DNA from: a virus
Lineage: Duplodnaviria > Heunggongvirae > Uroviricota > Caudoviricetes
Virus record (IMG/VR): IMGVR_UViG_2579778982_000017
Direction: 5' to 3' (one strand)
Length of the DNA stretch: 33,426 nucleotides
Of this stretch, positions 4,920-14,345 are shown one piece after another (within the stretch, counting starts at the first letter, position 1; every line of letters starts with the position of its first letter). The position numbers and the translations under genes were made by a program. Below the pieces are notes generated by a model. That model worked only from the letters and a program-made list of their open reading frames with translations, was not told where the DNA came from and did not search any database.

Positions 4920-4995
4920 GGCCCCTTAGCTCAGTGGTTAGAGCAGGCGACTCATAATCGCACGGTCATCGGTTCAAATCCGGTAGGGGCCACCA
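4920..4995 (+). tRNA. tRNA with anticodon CAU, most like tRNA-Ile2 (ileX-type) rather than elongator tRNA-Met; 3' CCA encoded
   Basis: 76 nt, GGCCCCT/AGGGGCC acceptor stem, GTGG D-loop, anticodon loop CTCATAA (CAT at 4953-4955), GGTTCAAATCC T-loop. First ~42 nt match my recollection of E. coli ileX. Confidence 0.85.
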
Positions 4996-5303: not shown

Positions 5304-5891
5304 ATGGAGGCAATTGCATTGTTTAATCTGATTTATGCAGATCCCCCCTGGGAATACAAAGACAAGTGTAAGGATGGGAATCGTGGCGCTGGTTTTAAGT
5401 ATCCAACGATGAAAGCTGAGGATATTGCTCGTATTCCTGTCTGGCAGCTTGCTAATCCTGAATCGTGTTTGTTGGCCATGTGGTGGGTTCCGACTCAGCC
5501 AGAAGAAGCGTTGCTGGTGGTGAAAGCATGGGGATTCAGGCTGATGACCATGAAGGGCTTCACATGGAACAAATGTGGTAGCCGACAACCAGATAAGCTG
5601 GTGATGGGGATGGGGCATATGACTCGTGCAAACAGTGAAGATTGCTTGTTTGCAGTGAAAGGCAAACTACCGACACGTCTTGATGCGGGGATCATTCAGT
5701 CGTTTACATCGCCTCGTCTGGAGCATTCTCGGAAGCCTGATGTGGTCCGTGACAAGCTGGTAAAGCTGTTAGGCGATGTTCCTCGTATTGAGCTGTTTGC
5801 TCGCGGTGATTTACCTGATGGCTGGCATGGCTGGGGCAACCAGTGCAACGGAGGTATCCAGTTGCATGATGCTCTCTGGCAAGTGTCATAG
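5304..5891 (+). CDS. DNA N6-adenine methyltransferase, MT-A70 family (orphan, no nuclease partner seen)
   Basis: N-terminal IYADPPWEY (DPPW catalytic motif) in a ~195-aa protein; GGAGA upstream of ATG 5304. Confidence 0.8.
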   Translation: MEAIALFNLIYADPPWEYKDKCKDGNRGAGFKYPTMKAEDIARIPVWQLANPESCLLAMWWVPTQPEEALLVVKAWGFRLMTMKGFTWNKCGSRQPDKLVMGMGHMTRANSEDCLFAVKGKLPTRLDAGIIQSFTSPRLEHSRKPDVVRDKLVKLLGDVPRIELFARGDLPDGWHGWGNQCNGGIQLHDALWQVS

Positions 5892-7817: not shown

Positions 7818-7878
7818 CGCATTACAGCAGCTCTTGTGCTTATCAGGGGCTGCGATAATGCGCAAACCAAAGCTGCCT

Positions 7879-7923
7879 CATTAACTCCAGCTCGCTGTGG
7901 AGTTAATGCTGGTGGCTTTTTTA
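7879..7923 (+). promoter_or_regulatory. Perfect 11-bp inverted repeat hairpin with downstream T-run (terminator or operator)
   Basis: CATTAACTCCA-8 nt-TGGAGTTAATG, then CTGGTGGC and TTTTTTA; in the 234-bp spacer upstream of the first ParB-like gene. Confidence 0.35.
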
Positions 7924-8051
7924 TTACTGGAAGGTGGGCGACCGCCGTCAGTTGCGACCTGACGACAGTCATTCATACCCACAGGGTGCCGTGGATACAA
8001 ACCGAGGCCCACTTGCTTGCACAAGCGAGGGGATTTTAGCGGATAAACGGC

Positions 8052-8675
8052 ATGACAAAACATCTTAATGTGGTTTCTTTACCACTTTCTGTGTTGATTG
8101 GTTATGAAAAGAACGCTCGCACACACTCCGTGGAGCAGGTAGATCAGATTGTTGCCAGCATACAGGAGTACGGATGGACTAATCCGATCCTGATAGACGA
8201 GAACAACGTTGTAATTGCTGGTCATGGTCGAATTGCTGCGGCCACTCAGTTGGGGATGGATGAGGTTCCCTGCATTGTTCTGGAAGGGCTAACGGAGAAT
8301 CAGAAGAAGGCATATCGTCTGGCCGACAACCGTATTCCGCTGAATGCTGGTTGGGATGAAGAGTTGTTAAGCGCGGAGCTTGCAGATCTTGCGGCCGATG
8401 ATTTTGCTCTGGACTCAATTGGTTTTACTCAGCGCGAACTGGATAACTTATTGAGTGCGGCGGTCTACGATGACACAGAGGGTATGGATATCCCATTTGA
8501 GAAGGATGAGGCCAAATCAGGCGTAAAAGTTCAGTACCTGTCATTTGGAGGTCATAAAATCCCGGCAACGGATGAGGAAGCGGATCGTTTTGACTGCGCG
8601 GTGTCTCGTTATGTTGATGATAATGGCAGCTATATCGGATTTGTATCCGCATTGCTGGCTGGGGAGGTGTGCTGA
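8052..8675 (+). CDS. ParB-like N-terminal (ParB/Srx fold) domain protein with acidic C-terminal region
   Basis: PILIDENNVVIAGHGRIAAATQLGMDEVPCIVL and QKKAYRLADN are ParB N-domain-like; stop overlaps next start (TGATG). Confidence 0.75.
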   Translation: MTKHLNVVSLPLSVLIGYEKNARTHSVEQVDQIVASIQEYGWTNPILIDENNVVIAGHGRIAAATQLGMDEVPCIVLEGLTENQKKAYRLADNRIPLNAGWDEELLSAELADLAADDFALDSIGFTQRELDNLLSAAVYDDTEGMDIPFEKDEAKSGVKVQYLSFGGHKIPATDEEADRFDCAVSRYVDDNGSYIGFVSALLAGEVC

Positions 8676-10048
8676 TGCTTCACCTGAATTACGACATAAC
8701 GCACCTACGCGGCGCGGAATATAACCCGCGTTTTATCGGTGAGGATGATCTTGCGAGGCTGGCGGAAAGCGTCAGGGAGCTGGGGCTTGTGAAGCCATTG
8801 ATAGTGCGCGGCGATTTGCTGGTGGCGGGACACCAAAGGACGAAGGCGCTACGTAAGTTGGGAATAACGCGTGCTGCGGTGTATGTGTTGCCCTGTGAAA
8901 CGACGGTATACGATGAAGTACGGTTTAACCAACTGCATAACGGAACGGATTTTGATAGCGGAGATGAGCGTTGCAGGGTGTCCGGTCTGGAAGATAAGCA
9001 TGGTTTTGTTCAGGTATCGGCAAGCCAGATCTCAGGCAATATGCGCGCGAAAATGGCATATGTTCGAAAGAACATAGCGGAACTGGTTATCAAGTATGGT
9101 CCGTGGGGGGGTTGTGTTGCTACTCAGTCTGGTGAGGTTATTCACTGTGCTCAGTATGCATTAGCAGCGAAAATGACGCGCACACCGCTAACGGTGTTTG
9201 TGATCCCTGATGTTGAGAAGGAAAAATACCAAAGTTATCTGAATAAAACTTATGGTGTATTTGAGTATTCTCATCTGGAGAAAACAACATATATCCAGAC
9301 GTATGCGCAGCTTATGCGGTTGCGTAATGGTGGCAGCCTGAAATCAAATCTGTATGAGTCGTTGATCCTCCCGATCATTGCCAAGACGCCAAGAGGAATT
9401 GATTTTGGTTCGGGGCAGGGAGACTACGCGCGAATGCTCAGGGCAAAGGGATATAACCTGCATGATCTCGAGCTTTTTCGCCGTAAGGGCGCTGGAAACA
9501 CTCTGGATAGGACCGCAACAAACCGGATGATTGATACGCTGGTGGACGACTTAAAAACGCGAGGGCGTTACGACTACGTGATTTGCGATAGCGTTTTGAA
9601 CTCGGTCGATAGTGTCGAGGCTGAATGGTCCGTTCTGACGGTTCTGAAAGGCCTGTGTAAAGCTGGTGGGTCAATATTCTTTTCTGGTCGTAGCCGTGGA
9701 GAGCTGGAAACAGTCCTGAAGCAAACACAAGCGGCGAGTTCCAAAAGCCGGCTTTATTTTATTGATCATAACGGTTTTACCGCGTTGTACCGGAAGGGGC
9801 ACTGGTTTTACCAGAAGTTTCACTCTGATGATGAAGTGAAGCAGTTGTGCCGTGTACATGGTTTCAGGATTAAGCGGTCAATATTCAACTGTAAGAGCTG
9901 GTATTTGCACGTCATTAACGATGATTCCCTTAGTTGGGCGAGTCTGGAGAAAGCTGTTCGTTTTGAGTTTGAGTTGCCGTTGCCTGGTGGTTCAACAATC
10001 GGACGATCTGATGATGTGCTGGCGGCTTTCCGGCCGTTGATTAAGTAG
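8675..10048 (+). CDS. Fusion protein: ParB-like N-terminal domain + Rossmann-type SAM-dependent methyltransferase domain
   Basis: ATG 8675 with GGGGAGG 7 nt upstream (track uses GTG 8669). N-terminus PLIVRGDLLVAGHQRTKALRKLGI; C-terminal half has IDFGSGQGDY (SAM glycine loop), HDLELF and DYVICDSVLNSV; no DPPY/NPPY/DPPW motif seen. Confidence 0.7.
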   Translation: MLHLNYDITHLRGAEYNPRFIGEDDLARLAESVRELGLVKPLIVRGDLLVAGHQRTKALRKLGITRAAVYVLPCETTVYDEVRFNQLHNGTDFDSGDERCRVSGLEDKHGFVQVSASQISGNMRAKMAYVRKNIAELVIKYGPWGGCVATQSGEVIHCAQYALAAKMTRTPLTVFVIPDVEKEKYQSYLNKTYGVFEYSHLEKTTYIQTYAQLMRLRNGGSLKSNLYESLILPIIAKTPRGIDFGSGQGDYARMLRAKGYNLHDLELFRRKGAGNTLDRTATNRMIDTLVDDLKTRGRYDYVICDSVLNSVDSVEAEWSVLTVLKGLCKAGGSIFFSGRSRGELETVLKQTQAASSKSRLYFIDHNGFTALYRKGHWFYQKFHSDDEVKQLCRVHGFRIKRSIFNCKSWYLHVINDDSLSWASLEKAVRFEFELPLPGGSTIGRSDDVLAAFRPLIK

Positions 10049-10064
10049 TCTGTAGGAGGCGCTG

Positions 10065-10784
10065 GTGGCTGACAGAATTGAGATAAAGATGGATTTTTCT
10101 TCTCAGGATATTCAACGACAACTCCAGCGCCTTGAAGAACGCGAATTGCCGTTCGCAATGGCGCTTGCGGCAACCAGAACGGCAAAGGCTTCTCAGGCTG
10201 CGATTAAGAATGAAATTAATCGGGTATTTGACAGGCCCACGCCGTGGATTCAGAACTCTACTTACGTTTTGGCCGCAAAGAAGAGCGATCCTACAGCCAT
10301 TGTGTATGCTCGTGAATGGGGAGGAACGCCAGCCCCTGTAACGTTGACCCCGCAAATCGAAGGTGGCCAACGACAGTACAAACGCTCAGAAGGGGCGCTA
10401 AGGGCTGGTGGATATTTGCCTAACGGCTGGCAGCTTGCTCCTGGTCCCGGCGCAAAGCTGGACAAATATGGGAATATTTCGCGGGGGCAATTACAGCAGG
10501 TCTTATCTGGCCTAAGAGTTCAGCGAGATGCGCATCAAAATCGCCGTCAGGGCAAGCCTACGGAGTTTTTTGTTGTTCGACCTGGTACAAGTAACCCGCT
10601 TCAACCAGGCGTCTGGCAGCGCGTTGGGCGGCGTCCTACGTTGATCCTTACGTTTATCCAGCAACCTAACTATTCGCAGCGTCTTGATTGGCATGGCGTG
10701 GCGCTGCGTGCTGGTGAGGATGCGTTTGCTGATGAAGTCACAAAGGCTATTGATGACATTCTTTCTAAGACCTTCTCTCGTTAA
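10065..10784 (+). CDS. Hypothetical protein (239 aa), last gene of the ParB/methyltransferase operon
   Basis: GTG 10065 with GGAGG at 10054-10058, 17 nt after upstream stop; Gln/Arg/Pro-rich; no motif recognised. Confidence 0.55.
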   Translation: MADRIEIKMDFSSQDIQRQLQRLEERELPFAMALAATRTAKASQAAIKNEINRVFDRPTPWIQNSTYVLAAKKSDPTAIVYAREWGGTPAPVTLTPQIEGGQRQYKRSEGALRAGGYLPNGWQLAPGPGAKLDKYGNISRGQLQQVLSGLRVQRDAHQNRRQGKPTEFFVVRPGTSNPLQPGVWQRVGRRPTLILTFIQQPNYSQRLDWHGVALRAGEDAFADEVTKAIDDILSKTFSR

Positions 10785-10975
10785 TCATCGTGTGGTTGAT
10801 GGTGTTGTTATGCAGAGTGTATTCACTGTGTTCTGTAGCGTCGCTCGCTGGCTGTCTGTGGGGGAGCACGAGCATCGTTTCATCGTCCGGCAGAATTGGG
10901 TCCTTCTGGCCAAAAGCGTTGGATGCGGGTCATTCGAACCCCGATGTTCGGCTAGCTAAACGTGAAAAAAGTTAG

Positions 10976-11341
10976 GTTAAAAGTTGCGGTAAAAGAAATT
11001 TACTCATCTCATTGAAAAATATCGGGAAAACGTGATTTTTTGCTGTATTTGTGCTGGTAAAAAGAAAGTAGAAAATTTTCTTTTAGATCATCAAGATACG
11101 CGCAGATCTTTAACCAATGTGATGTTGTTCTGATAAAAATAGTTATAAATCATGCAAATACATCCAATCTTTTAACCAAAACACCATCGCAAGATCCTTT
11201 TTACTTATAAAAACTTAATAAAATCAGATAATTATGCTGGTTTGTGTGATTTTTTATGAGTAAAAAGATCGTCATTTTTCTCTTTTAGTATCAATAAGTT
11301 AAACAGTTTTCTTTAACCTGTTGTGTTATGGCGGTTAAAAA
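10976..11341. promoter_or_regulatory. Long AT-rich non-coding region with clustered GATC sites and short repeats (promoter or packaging-site candidate)
   Basis: ~365 bp without a credible ORF; GATC at 11086, 11105, 11193 and 11267; CTTTAACC-type repeats at ~11108, ~11168 and 11312; lies upstream of the packaging genes. Confidence 0.35.
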
Positions 11342-11932
11342 ATGGCTCTAAAAATCGAATATTTACCAGTCGGTAAGCTGCTCAGATACGCCAAAAATTC
11401 ACGGACTCATTCAGATGAGCAGGTTGAACAGTTGGTGAACAGTATCCGTGAGTTCGGTTTCACTAATCCTGTGCTGATCGATGAAAAGAATGAACTGATT
11501 GCGGGGCATGGTCGGCTTGCAGCAGCCGAAATTCTGGAAATGGATAAAGTTCCGGCGATTCGGTTGAGTAACCTTTCTGAAAAACAGAAGAAGGCGTACA
11601 GGATTGCAGATAACAAGCTGGCCTTAAATGCTGGCTGGGATATGCAGCTTCTGGCCGAAGAAGTCAAAGAGTTAATGGATGATGATTTTGATATTGATCT
11701 GCTTGGGTTTAATGATGCAGAGCTTGACGAAATGTTAAGCGATGAACAGCCGCAGGAAGAAGACGATAATTCTTCCCCTGTTGTTCAAATTAAGTACCTG
11801 GCTATTGATAAAGAACGTATTCCCGCGACGGATATGGAAATTGCATTGTTGCTGGATGTTTATCGTCAGTACCACGACGCGCATGAAACGCATGAGGGAT
11901 TTGTTCAGTATCTTGCTAATGGTTGCAAGTAA
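11342..11932 (+). CDS. ParB-like N-terminal domain protein, paralogue of 8052-8675
   Basis: About half the first ~130 residues identical by eye to 8052-8675 (RTHS-EQV, TNP-LIDE, IAGHGR, QKKAYR-ADN, LNAGWD); stop overlaps terminase start (TAATG). Confidence 0.75.
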   Translation: MALKIEYLPVGKLLRYAKNSRTHSDEQVEQLVNSIREFGFTNPVLIDEKNELIAGHGRLAAAEILEMDKVPAIRLSNLSEKQKKAYRIADNKLALNAGWDMQLLAEEVKELMDDDFDIDLLGFNDAELDEMLSDEQPQEEDDNSSPVVQIKYLAIDKERIPATDMEIALLLDVYRQYHDAHETHEGFVQYLANGCK

Positions 11933-12483
11933 TGGTCATCGTCAGTAAGTCAGAGTTTGCCCGCCGGAAAGGTATTTCTCCGGCAATGGTTACGAAGCTC
12001 TGTCGTTCCGGTCGCATTCCAGTGCTGAAAAGCGGCAAGCTGGATTTTGATAAAGCCAGTGCGGCTTATGAAGCGAGCCGACAGGTTGGCCGTGAGGTAT
12101 CTGCTGAAAATGGAAAAAGAGGGCATGGGATATCTTCGGAACAACCAGAGTTACCCGCTGATGATGCCGGATTAGCTGGTGGTACTTCCGGTGTTGCGGT
12201 GCAATTCAACAAGGCTAAGACCGCAGAAAAAATTTATCAGGCAAAGCTGAAACGCCTTGAATTTGAAGAAAAGGAAGGCTCTCTCATCGCTAAAGATGCG
12301 GTCAGGGATGATGCATTTCTGGCAGCTAATGAATTGCGTAGCCGCTTATTTAGTATTGCTCCAAGAGCAGCTCCCCGTTGTGAAGGCAAAACAGCCAGGG
12401 AGATCGAACGCATTATTGAAGACGAGATTAATTTTGCGCTTCAGGCGCTCCAGGAATCCCGATTTATTAAGCAGGAAGAATAA
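11932..12483 (+). CDS. Terminase small subunit (Nu1-like)
   Basis: Directly upstream of the large subunit; N-terminus SKSEFARRKGISPAMVTKLCRSGRIPV resembles the lambda Nu1 N-terminal DNA-binding pattern. ATG 11932 preferred over the track's TTG 11923. Confidence 0.65.
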   Translation: MVIVSKSEFARRKGISPAMVTKLCRSGRIPVLKSGKLDFDKASAAYEASRQVGREVSAENGKRGHGISSEQPELPADDAGLAGGTSGVAVQFNKAKTAEKIYQAKLKRLEFEEKEGSLIAKDAVRDDAFLAANELRSRLFSIAPRAAPRCEGKTAREIERIIEDEINFALQALQESRFIKQEE

Positions 12484-12488
12484 ACCTC

Positions 12489-14345
12489 ATGGGCGAAACA
12501 GTATGGAGCACCGCTTTTTTCCGTGCGCTTCGCCCTAAATCACGGCTAACTGTTTCCGAATGGGCTGATAAGTATCGTCATGTAGCGCCGGGAACGTCTC
12601 CAGAGCCAGGGCCGTGGTGTACAAGCCGAGTGCCATATTTGCGTGAACCAATGGATGTTATTGGTGACGCTGATACAGAAACAGTAGTGATGCAATGTAG
12701 CTCGCAAATTGGTAAATCCGAATTACAGCTAAATGTTATGGGTTACTTTGCAGATCAGGAGCCATCTCCTCAGTTGATGATTTATCCAACGGTAGAGGCG
12801 GCTGAGGCTTTTTCAAAAGAGCGTATTGATCCGACGTTCAAATATTCCCCTGGTTTGAAACACAAGCTGCATGAAGGGAAAGAGGGGCGCGGTGCAGCCA
12901 AAAAGTCCAGCACGACTATACGTATGAAGCATTACGCTGGTGGATATATAGCACTTGTTGGTGCTAATTCCCCAGCAGGTCTTGCATCCAGGCCAATTCG
13001 AATACTGTTAGCTGATGAGATTGATCGTTACGGTGTGACGCAGGAGGGCGACCCACTAAAACTAGGTATTCAGCGTACTACCAACTTTCATAATCGTAAG
13101 AAAGTTTTTGTTTCTACTCCTGTTTTGGAGGAAACGAGCAAAATCCACAAGTGGTTTAAGCTCTCCGATCAGCGTTACTACCATGTTCCTTGCCCATGTT
13201 GTGGCACCATGCAGGTGATGAAATGGTCGCAAGTCAGATGGGATAAGAGCGATTCAGGTGAGGCGTTACCGGAAACGGCCAGATATGAGTGCTGTGAGTG
13301 CGGCGGGATTATGCGCGGATCTGGTAAACCAGACGTTGATTGGTTGGCGAAGGGGGTTTGGATAGCTGAACATACTGGAGTTAAAGGTATTGTTGGTTTT
13401 CATATTAACAGTCTTTACTCCCCGTGGGTTGCATTGTCAGAGCTGGTTGAAGAATTTACGGAAGCAACCAGAAACCGCGATAAAAATGGATTAATGGAGT
13501 TTATTAACCTTAAGCTGGGTGAGCCATGGAAAGAGGATGCTAAAGACGATATAGATCCTGAATACTTGTTGCAACGCAGAATAAGGTTTGAAGAGTTTTT
13601 ACCAGATGATGTTTTATTGTTAAGTGCTGGTGTTGACGTACAGGACACGTATTTAGTTTGTGAATTGGTCGGTTGGGGAAAAGGTAAGGAGTCATGGGGG
13701 ATAGAATATAAAATATTCCCAGGTGATCCCGCACAAGATGTTGTCTGGAAACAACTTGATGAATACTTACTCCGTAGCTGGTCATTCCGTGACGGTCGAA
13801 AATTACAGATTTCTTCTGTTTGTATTGACTCTGGTGGGCATTTTACGACAGAGGTATATCGCTTTACTAAGCCGAGAGAATCAAGGCGAATATACTCTAT
13901 CAGGGGGCGTGGTGGGGTAGGTTTACCATTTATAGGAAAGCCAAGTAATAATAACCGTGTGGGTGCTATGTTGTTTAATTTAGGGGTTGATGATGGTAAA
14001 GGGACCATCATGGCAAGAATTAAACTACATGATCCTGGTCCTGGTTATATGCATTTCCCATTAGATTCTGACAGAGGATATGATACCGAATACTTTAAAG
14101 GATTATTATCAGAGAAAAAAATATTTGAATATAAAAATGGGCAGACAAAAGAAAAGTGGGTGAAAGTCTACGAGCGTAACGAGCCTCTTGATTGCCGTAA
14201 CTATGCAACTGCCGCGATGGAAATTCTGAACCCTAATTTTAACTGGCTTGCCGAACAGGAAATGCGAGGTAATGTGTATGTGCAGAACTCGTCAGGTATA
14301 CGTAGAAGACGCCGTAGAGTTATAAGTAAAGGCGTAACCATATAG
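12489..14345 (+). CDS. Terminase large subunit (lambda gpA family)
   Basis: 618 aa; N-terminal TVSEWADKYR and C-terminal NEPLDCRNYATAA resemble lambda gpA as I recall it; position before gpW-like and portal genes. Confidence 0.9.
   Translation: MGETVWSTAFFRALRPKSRLTVSEWADKYRHVAPGTSPEPGPWCTSRVPYLREPMDVIGDADTETVVMQCSSQIGKSELQLNVMGYFADQEPSPQLMIYPTVEAAEAFSKERIDPTFKYSPGLKHKLHEGKEGRGAAKKSSTTIRMKHYAGGYIALVGANSPAGLASRPIRILLADEIDRYGVTQEGDPLKLGIQRTTNFHNRKKVFVSTPVLEETSKIHKWFKLSDQRYYHVPCPCCGTMQVMKWSQVRWDKSDSGEALPETARYECCECGGIMRGSGKPDVDWLAKGVWIAEHTGVKGIVGFHINSLYSPWVALSELVEEFTEATRNRDKNGLMEFINLKLGEPWKEDAKDDIDPEYLLQRRIRFEEFLPDDVLLLSAGVDVQDTYLVCELVGWGKGKESWGIEYKIFPGDPAQDVVWKQLDEYLLRSWSFRDGRKLQISSVCIDSGGHFTTEVYRFTKPRESRRIYSIRGRGGVGLPFIGKPSNNNRVGAMLFNLGVDDGKGTIMARIKLHDPGPGYMHFPLDSDRGYDTEYFKGLLSEKKIFEYKNGQTKEKWVKVYERNEPLDCRNYATAAMEILNPNFNWLAEQEMRGNVYVQNSSGIRRRRRRVISKGVTI

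Follow-up and report, generated by a model that had tools for sequence, protein, structure and literature searches.

Genes of the locus and domain architecture of their products

The subject of this work is a pair of adjacent genes found in the 33,426-nt virus record IMGVR_UViG_2579778982_000017 (this whole stretch of analysed DNA is referred to below as the window), which originates from a circular Escherichia coli phage-plasmid of approx. 48 kb. On the + strand, gene 1 (8052-8675; 207 amino acids (aa), ATG start) encodes a stand-alone ParB-type protein, gene 2 (8675-10048; 457 aa, or 459 aa when counted from 8669, the open reading frame (ORF) being listed as 8669/8675-10048) encodes a fusion of a ParB domain with an S-adenosylmethionine (SAM) methyltransferase, and gene 3 (10065-10784; 239 aa, GTG start) encodes an enlarged HK97-gp10-like protein. 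A GGGGAGG sequence is followed by TGATG (8673-8677), in which the stop codon of gene 1 and the ATG of gene 2 share one base. Gene 2 terminates with TAG (10046-10048), and a 16-nt spacer containing GGAGG (10056-10060) separates it from the GTG of gene 3 at position 10065. An earlier, sequence-only reading of this DNA had described three co-oriented ORFs with the TGATG overlap and the GGAGG in front of gene 3, all of which are present, as are the motifs quoted from the translation of gene 2 (LIVRGDLLVAGHQR, IDFGSGQGDY, HDLELF and DYVICDSVLNSV). It treated the three genes as one system; in fact, the conserved unit is composed of gene 1 and gene 2, and gene 3 is an unrelated bystander.

The recognition of gene 1 as ParB-like, and of gene 2 as a ParB/Srx domain joined to a class I SAM methyltransferase, was borne out. 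In gene 2, residues 1-90 (8675-8944, + strand) correspond to a ParB/Srx nucleoside triphosphate (NTP)-binding domain, residues 110-190 (9002-9244, + strand) to a second alpha/beta unit with the element order of the ParB domain, and residues 225-457, together with the stop codon (9347-10048, + strand), to a class I SAM methyltransferase of the Methyltransf_23, or small-molecule/tRNA, type. The Pfam scores were 24.3 bits for ParB_N (cut-off 26.3) and 32.6 bits for Methyltransf_23 (PF13489; cut-off 27). An AlphaFold (AF2) model, built on 42 homologues, had a predicted local distance difference test (pLDDT) value of 92.9 and a predicted template modelling (pTM) score of 0.88; invariance of residues, as given below for gene 2, was judged on 42 sequences.

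Alignment with Spo0J revealed that the NTP-binding positions R19 (Box I), G52-H-Q-R55 (P motif) and N85 (Box III) of gene 2 are invariant. The residues responsible for CTP hydrolysis in partition ParBs, a Gln and a Glu whose roles have been described previously (PMC13229309), are replaced by N17 and H53, respectively, and both replacements are invariant in the gene 2 family. Since the phosphate-binding residues are retained and the Gln and Glu are replaced, the ParB domain of gene 2 is likely to bind a nucleotide, and canonical CTP hydrolysis is doubtful.

The AF2 model shows the order E-H-E-E-H-E-H, with elements of similar lengths, in both residues 1-90 and residues 110-190. The latter unit lacks a GxxR motif and carries CAQY at the equivalent position. 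No sequence support for a ParB duplication was obtained for residues 99-205: there was no Pfam hit, and hhalign comparison of the two halves gave a probability of 0.4%, with a single aligned piece that is in register. As the repeated order of secondary structure elements is not confirmed by sequence methods, residues 110-190 are only tentatively, although probably, regarded as a degenerate ParB/Srx-like duplicate.

In the protein encoded by gene 1, an N-terminal ParB domain for NTP binding is joined by a helical linker and an acidic stretch to a small C-terminal domain. The protein matches phrog_620 of the PHROGs database (E 1.1e-74), its Pfam ParB_N score (25.4 bits) lies slightly below the cut-off of 26.3, and its best sequence match in the PDB is Spo0J (E 1.1e-3). 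The Spo0J alignment reveals in it the variant motifs already seen in gene 2, namely Asn-x-Arg, GHGR (which fits the GxxR P motif) and Asn; likewise, the catalytic Gln of Box I and the Glu of GERR are replaced by Asn and His, respectively. Its residues 3-152 align with the first 150 positions of phrog_498, annotated as 'DNA methyltransferase' (E 2.9e-51), and the PADLOC model MTase_II PDLC03229 is matched at positions 14-158 of 436 only (E 2.6e-38). Because these matches are confined to the N-termini of type II methylases, gene 1 is the ParB-plus-linker module of ParB-fused type II (N6/N4) DNA methylases, encoded alone, without a catalytic domain.

The methyltransferase half of gene 2 scores above the curated cut-off of the Methyltransf_23 hidden Markov model, has a Rossmann-like methyltransferase fold and contains both motif I and the acidic residue of strand beta2. 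The residues of the SAM site are invariant (D243, G245 and G247 of motif I, E266 as the acidic residue at the end of beta2, and D305 after beta4), and a C-terminal lid specific to this family contains the invariant R339, R373, W377, F378, Q380 and H383. The claim that gene 2 carries no N6/N4 or C5 DNA-methylase motifs proved correct. There is no (D/N/S)PP(Y/F/W) motif IV after beta4, no match to PF01555 or PF02384, and not a single PP dipeptide in the translation; the C5 hallmarks (a catalytic PC together with ENV, and a match to PF00145) were not found either, and the only PC of the protein (residues 73-74) belongs to its ParB domain, at an alignment position that varies. Gene 2 therefore cannot perform N6-adenine, N4-cytosine or C5-cytosine methylation of a known kind. 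No named family was found for it in NCBIfam and PADLOC outside its ParB part, and none of the characterised families was matched over the full length; the SAM site is intact.

The nearest structures and sequences are small-molecule and tRNA methyltransferases (3sm3, Trm9, toxoflavin methyltransferase, METTL6 and UbiG), and the fold neighbours point just as much to substrates other than DNA. Gene 2 may instead methylate a nucleotide, a small molecule, RNA/tRNA or a host protein, perhaps to weaken a signal or factor of host defence. The ParB domains would then sense NTPs or bind the substrate, with a regulatory role for gene 1. The missing DNA-methylase motifs are in line with this, and the many invariant Arg residues of the methyltransferase half could suit a phosphate-bearing ligand. 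ParB/Srx folds also occur in nucleotide-binding enzymes, e.g. sulfiredoxin and SerK, and fusions of ParB with SAM methyltransferases have been found to bind ATP (PMC12704722). On the other side stand the ParB subtype of gene 1, which is the one fused to DNA methylases, the late, terminase-adjacent position (see below), which would be unusual for an early-acting anti-defence factor, and the lack of conserved metabolic partner genes in the vicinity. Taken as a whole, we consider this explanation a serious one, although rather improbable.

Conservation of the gene pair and its genomic neighbourhood

The sequence-only reading saw no obvious precedent for gene 2. This view could not be upheld, since residues 1-457 match positions 1-457 of the 458 positions of phrog_5475 (E 1.6e-265), more than 780 homologous clusters exist, and the fusion has already been catalogued (PMC12704722). 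The best 120 of these homologues, with lengths of 440-572 aa (mostly approx. 460 aa), carry the same two Pfam domains and are 45-99% identical to gene 2. Some tblastn matches of approx. 1,940 nt were considered as possible inteins or insertions in the homologues; this was rejected, as the ORFs are of normal size (approx. 470 aa) and the matches simply join the neighbouring ParB gene. When the methyltransferase half alone was searched against 1.84 billion representatives, 392 matches were obtained at E<=1e-3, 275 at E<=1e-10 and 147 at E<=1e-30. Nearly all of the 392 are proteins of 450-490 aa matched at about residues 205-460, which indicates that this methyltransferase clade is almost confined to the ParB fusion. 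At 50% identity the family forms approx. 400 clusters distributed over about nine bacterial phyla, with hosts among Enterobacterales, Alphaproteobacteria, Bacillota, Bacteroidota, Planctomycetota, Myxococcota, Chloroflexota, Chlorobiaceae and Kiritimatiellae, and it is also present in Bacteroides and Brochothrix phages.

In the catalogue of Kaljevic et al. 2025 (PMC12704722), the combination of ParB-CTPase and Methyltransf_23 counts as one of the fusions over-represented in phages and prophages. The authors purified and tested constructs of the ParB + PF13489 architecture, and observed in vitro binding of ATP by ParB + SAM-methyltransferase fusions. The domain was termed a 'predicted DNA methyltransferase', and no function, partner or genomic position was assigned to it; in the literature searched we found no other mention of this combination. 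Gene 2 is thus a member of a catalogued and widespread family.

To describe the neighbourhood of the fusion gene we collected 77 viral loci, of which 76 were used for counting downstream genes. A ParB gene of approx. 200 aa was located within two genes 5' of the fusion gene in 50 of the 59 loci with enough upstream DNA. Where the ParB gene was directly adjacent, its stop codon overlapped the start of the fusion gene by 1-14 nt (46/50 loci), which is a signature of translational coupling. In most loci the fusion gene is followed by a gene for a protein of approx. 144 aa, the terminase small subunit gene terS and the large subunit gene terL. The first large ORF downstream, analysed with Pfam in 44 loci, was in most of them a terminase large subunit, with at least four Pfam families represented: GpA (13), Terminase_6 (about 14), TerL_ATPase (3) and Terminase_3 (3). 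In Bacteroides phage BS-TP3 the genes for ParB, the fusion protein, TerS and TerL follow in direct succession, and the same order is found in alphaproteobacterial prophages and metagenomic phages; the loci from bacterial genomes are likewise of the prophage type, with the exception of Chloroflexota.

In the window, the module precedes the packaging genes. Downstream of gene 3 and a 557-bp spacer lies a second ParB gene, ParB2 (11342-11932, + strand; 196 aa), followed by terS (11923-12483, + strand; phrog_57, E 4.5e-42) and a GpA-type terL (12489-14345, + strand), the latter identified by the presence of GpA_ATPase and GpA_nuclease in a near-identical copy (locus L016) and by the RefSeq annotation of a 99.5%-identical plasmid. 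The nearby ParB-like copy noticed in the sequence-only reading is therefore real: ParB2 is a paralogue of gene 1 (48% identity over the full length; Pfam ParB_N 33.7 bits; phrog_620, E 4.6e-75), and its last 10 nt are shared with the beginning of terS. Thus, the element carries two stand-alone ParB copies, one (gene 1) coupled to the methyltransferase fusion and the other (ParB2) coupled to terS.

Such an arrangement could mean that the pair controls packaging rather than protects DNA, with the ParB proteins marking or organising cos/pac, or with TerS, TerL or the portal protein being methylated, and the timing or licensing of packaging being the outcome. The pair adjoins terS-terL across the four terminase families and in several phyla, and phrog_620 ParBs adjoin terS elsewhere even where the fusion gene is missing, which, together with the overlap of ParB2 and terS, speaks for such a role. 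A precedent is phage P1, in which cleavage of pac is under the control of adenine methylation. The terminase families found downstream are, however, mutually unrelated, so that a specific partnership between proteins is less likely. Brochothrix phage BtpYZU02 carries its fusion gene within the replication module, approx. 4 kb away from terS, and the arrays of Chloroflexota are not obviously located beside terminases. We judge control of packaging to be unlikely.

The arrays in question (L106, L109, L111 and L112, from Oscillochloris, Chloroflexales and Kouleothrix) are tandem arrangements of two or three fusion paralogues beside one ParB gene. They may reflect diversification of specificity or a use outside phages; no informative domains were found among their neighbours.

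The protein of approx. 144 aa is encoded directly 3' of the fusion gene in 44 of the 76 viral loci (by alignment, e.g. L004:2210-2644, L006:8516-8947 and L002:9419-9883, plus 40 further loci). Its gene is inverted, and still adjacent, in one alphaproteobacterial lineage. The residues W20, K22, H32, C33, C36, C68, N79, H81, C131, R132, N133 and Q135 are invariant, and no meaningful match was obtained in Pfam, PHROGs, NCBIfam, PADLOC or the PDB. This Cys/His protein may be the third component of the module, and an HNH-like identity is no more than a guess. No member of its family is encoded in any of the six frames of the window. In a Bradyrhizobium prophage (L002/L003), a trio of ParB, ParB-methyltransferase and a 154-aa protein is accompanied, a few kb away, by genes for Amidoligase_2, GGACT/AIG2 and an N6-methylase-like protein. 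These gene types were reportedly tied by Iyer et al. to peptide or nucleotide modification systems.

Gene 3 had been described as an ORFan, which it is not: it matches phrog_1924 (E 2.5e-97), and its family is represented by over 100 protein clusters and, in viral contigs, by at least 572 stretches of similar sequence. No match was found in Pfam and NCBIfam (PF04883, TIGR01725). Its predicted fold is HK97-gp10-like, and it is most likely a neck or tail-completion-type protein of the virion, encoded just before the packaging genes of many lambda-like phages. Members of the family (L135-L212, L010-L012; approx. 240-300 aa) are very common directly upstream of terS-terL in phages with GpA terminases. 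Among distant loci with enough downstream DNA, terL was present within three genes 3' in 56 of 62, and a gap of approx. 150 nt to terS is seen in homologues elsewhere. A position before terS-terL is odd for a protein of the neck/tail type, and no description of it was found in the literature searched. A relationship between gene 3 and the approx. 144-aa protein was also considered, and was dismissed after negative results with BLASTP and hhalign.

It is on these grounds very improbable that all three genes, possibly with the MT-A70 gene, make up one DNA-modification or anti-restriction system, as the sequence-only reading proposed. The common orientation, the tight spacing and the ribosome-binding site of gene 3 speak for such a system, and the trio is kept in close enterobacterial relatives (L013-L020; 70-100% identity). 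Beyond these relatives it is not co-conserved. Just 7 of the 76 loci have gene 3 behind gene 2, and elsewhere the approx. 144-aa gene or terS takes this place; no ParB-methyltransferase was detected near distant homologues of gene 3 (0/75 loci), and the HK97-gp10-like fold does not fit the proposal. The nearby MT-A70 gene is present (5304-5891; E 4e-23, Pfam), at a distance of 2.2 kb, and we found no evidence linking it to the gene 1-gene 2 pair. It belongs to the same rightward string of genes as genes 1-3, as does a tRNA gene with the anticodon CAT (4920-4995), located between the lysis genes and the MT-A70 gene. This tRNA, the sole match in the Rfam scan, is labelled tRNA-Met both by ARAGORN and in the phage record, and tRNA-Ile in RefSeq.

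Genes 1-3 were detected at >=95% identity in 71 of 5,426 complete E. coli genomes (64 at >=99%). The terminase block was present in 72 genomes, which shows that the three genes are essentially fixed in this phage-plasmid lineage. The same DNA also occurs in cultured Yersinia and Escherichia myophages. Plasmid pP136-7 (99.5% identical) encodes RepA, ParA, a lysis cassette, a GpA-type terminase, portal and capsid proteins and a contractile tail. The phage-plasmid is also carried by E. coli ATCC 25922/Seattle 1946 (NZ_CP009073.1, NZ_CP037450.1 and NZ_CP101926.1), with 99.4% identity across ParB2-terS-terL. A search of the methylome and phage-plasmid literature yielded nothing specific to the E. 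coli element.

Of the 76 places in E. coli holding genes 1-3, 75 are on plasmids, and depositors label the genes as encoding partitioning proteins. It is nevertheless hardly credible that genes 1 and 2 represent the ParB side of a maintenance system of the phage-plasmid. The same pair is found beside the terminase genes in integrated prophages and in phages that are not plasmids. No helix-turn-helix (HTH) or parS-binding domain was detected by Pfam and NCBIfam in either protein, the scores for TIGR00180, the partition ParB family, are 30.3 and 16.4 bits (cut-off 58.45), and the hydrolysis residues are replaced. Moreover, the parA gene of the 99.5%-identical plasmid lies approx. 12.5 kb from gene 1 and has its own small downstream gene.

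The non-coding regions flanking genes 1-3 were also analysed. The 234-nt spacer 5' of gene 1 (7818-8051) folds with an energy of -96.7 kcal/mol (z -4.68; 0/200 shuffles as stable) and has no Rfam match. It contains, on the + strand, a terminator-like structure (7869-7927) composed of a long hairpin (7869-7919) and a U-run, UUUUUUAUU. The gene 1-3 unit may begin here, or transcription may read through this site by antitermination; a scan of the + strand between 7300 and 11500 revealed no sigma-70-like promoter.

Gene 3 and the ParB2-terS-terL block are separated by 557 bp of AT-rich sequence (10785-11341, no strand assigned), and this spacer coincides with a drop in GC content (0.39 in 11001-12000 vs 0.50-0.51 in 8001-9000 and 10001-11000), which suggests a mosaic junction. 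Short repeats are clustered in the spacer, which also holds an imperfect inverted repeat of 31 nt (11197-11267). A motif resembling TCTTTAACC occurs there in four copies, on both strands, within 10988-11341; it is not enriched window-wide (8 matches vs 8.8 expected), and 4 of the 8 matches fall inside this segment. From these features the spacer probably holds a cos/packaging site and/or a late promoter. The ends of three Yersinia phage records, which map to approx. 10927-10939 of the window, were examined as evidence for cos and discarded, since the records are declared circular and their ends are therefore arbitrary.

A putative methyltransferase complex acting before packaging

It is established which domains the two proteins contain, that their SAM and NTP motifs are intact, that their genes are paired and coupled and that these genes lie beside those of the terminase; the formation of a complex, DNA as its target and a biological purpose are what we infer. 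We propose that genes 1 and 2 constitute a translationally coupled two-protein module heading the packaging operon of a tailed phage. Late in infection, their products would assemble via the ParB domains into an NTP-gated, DNA-associated complex, heterodimerisation through these domains being the simplest route by which the enzyme could be recruited. Shortly before packaging, this complex would then position the methyltransferase at replicated phage DNA or at some target bound to DNA. The resulting mark, which should be other than N6-methyladenine, N4-methylcytosine or 5-methylcytosine, may protect or identify the genome in the next host. We give this explanation, with its putative substrate, our preference, while rating its chances as somewhat less than even.

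An NTP-regulated complex associated with DNA is favoured because a stand-alone ParB is coupled to an enzyme with a ParB domain of its own, and because gene 1 is akin to the ParB modules of DNA methylases. A further reason is the stand-alone phage ParB that activates a DNA dioxygenase and is needed only on double-stranded DNA (see below). The terminase-adjacent position points to late action, before packaging. Of the link with packaging or DNA modification suggested in the sequence-only reading, this much fits the data, the position being strongly conserved; the participation of MT-A70 does not follow from them.

Several observations weigh against our proposal. The stretch upstream of terminase genes is a hotspot for accessory genes (HNH nucleases, methylases), and position alone is for this reason weak evidence of function. 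The methyltransferase domain is closest to small-molecule and tRNA methyltransferases, without the motifs of known DNA methylases, and neither protein has a detectable HTH or other DNA-binding domain; DNA binding, complex formation and catalysis by the pair are predictions from sequence. Brochothrix phage BtpYZU02 has a fusion gene that is not preceded by a separate ParB gene, and the fusion arrays of Chloroflexota, as mentioned above, are not obviously located near terminases. The approx. 144-aa partner of most lineages is missing from the E. coli element, and so the module may be incomplete there. Finally, mutations of the NTP-binding site in the tested stand-alone phage ParB activator had little effect (PMC13229309), which makes NTP gating uncertain.

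A bolder possibility is that the methyltransferase is coupled to a ParB clamp and writes, processively and on replicated DNA before packaging, a phage-DNA mark outside the known DNA methylase families, with the approx. 144-aa protein as a third component in most lineages. Methylation of a ring nitrogen, an oxygen, the backbone or the DNA ends would be the candidate marks, and the approx. 144-aa protein would serve as a reader, a nuclease or a specificity factor. This version seems to us doubtful, though worth keeping in mind.

ParB-fold proteins have recently come to be seen as NTP-binding switches reused far beyond chromosome segregation. If the proposed complex exists, it would be the second, and a much more widespread, case of a ParB-coupled DNA-modifying enzyme after the phage dioxygenase activator, with an enzyme partner that itself holds ParB domains and a methyltransferase unlike known DNA methylases. 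Should the substrate be DNA, an unrecognised modification of phage DNA would take place at the packaging step, with consequences for restriction evasion and for the reading of phage methylomes; should it be another molecule, the pair would represent a new late-acting phage effector. The presence of the element in E. coli ATCC 25922 and in cultured Yersinia and E. coli phages makes the question directly testable.

Comparison with known systems

The HK97 gp10 family differs from gene 3 in two respects: gene 3 has roughly double the length and possesses long helices at its N- and C-termini, and it is encoded upstream of the terminase genes, not among the head-tail joining genes.

With the partition-type proteins Spo0J, Noc and KorB, genes 1 and 2 have in common the N-terminal fold and the Box I Arg, GxxR and Box III Asn. 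They differ in having no HTH/parS-binding domain and no adjacent ParA, and in the replacement of the catalytic Gln and Glu.

The ParB-fused N6/N4 DNA methylases known from prophages and plasmids (phrog_498, PDLC03229 and B. cereus Bce_0392) possess an N-terminal ParB domain and linker homologous to gene 1; the match of their ParB part to the first domain of gene 2 is weaker. Like the gene 2 fusion, they are found in prophages near terminase genes, and the B. cereus ParB-methylase, which nicks DNA, is located among them (PMC3592412, PMC5512222). Their catalytic domain is of the N6_N4 type with (D/N/S)PP(Y/F/W), whereas that of gene 2 is of the Methyltransf_23 type and has no PP. In these enzymes the ParB module is part of the fusion, whereas its counterpart here, gene 1, is a separate protein.

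A stand-alone ParB acting with a DNA-modifying enzyme is exemplified by ParB176 (O'Toole et al. 2026, PMC13229309), which is encoded beside the thymine dioxygenase 5mYOX176 and activates it, being required only on double-stranded DNA. The nucleotide-binding domain (NBD) of ParB176 is followed by a short helical segment, and a linker leads on to the C-terminal domain; a DNA-binding domain is missing, and terminases are often encoded nearby (PMC13229309). The layout of gene 1 is similar on inspection of the sequence. The partner enzymes are different: 5mYOX176 is an iron/2-oxoglutarate (Fe/2OG) dioxygenase without a ParB domain of its own, whereas gene 2 is a methyltransferase that has one.

The closest counterparts of gene 2 are the fusions catalogued in PMC12704722 and phrog_5475, with the same Pfam architecture and domain order; for the constructs tested in that study (uvig_65837_18, Alphaproteobacteria UBA3002), the likeness is one of architecture. 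Beyond that catalogue, the present analysis describes the stand-alone ParB to which gene 2 is coupled, a putative second ParB-like unit, the approx. 144-aa partner and the terminase-adjacent position.

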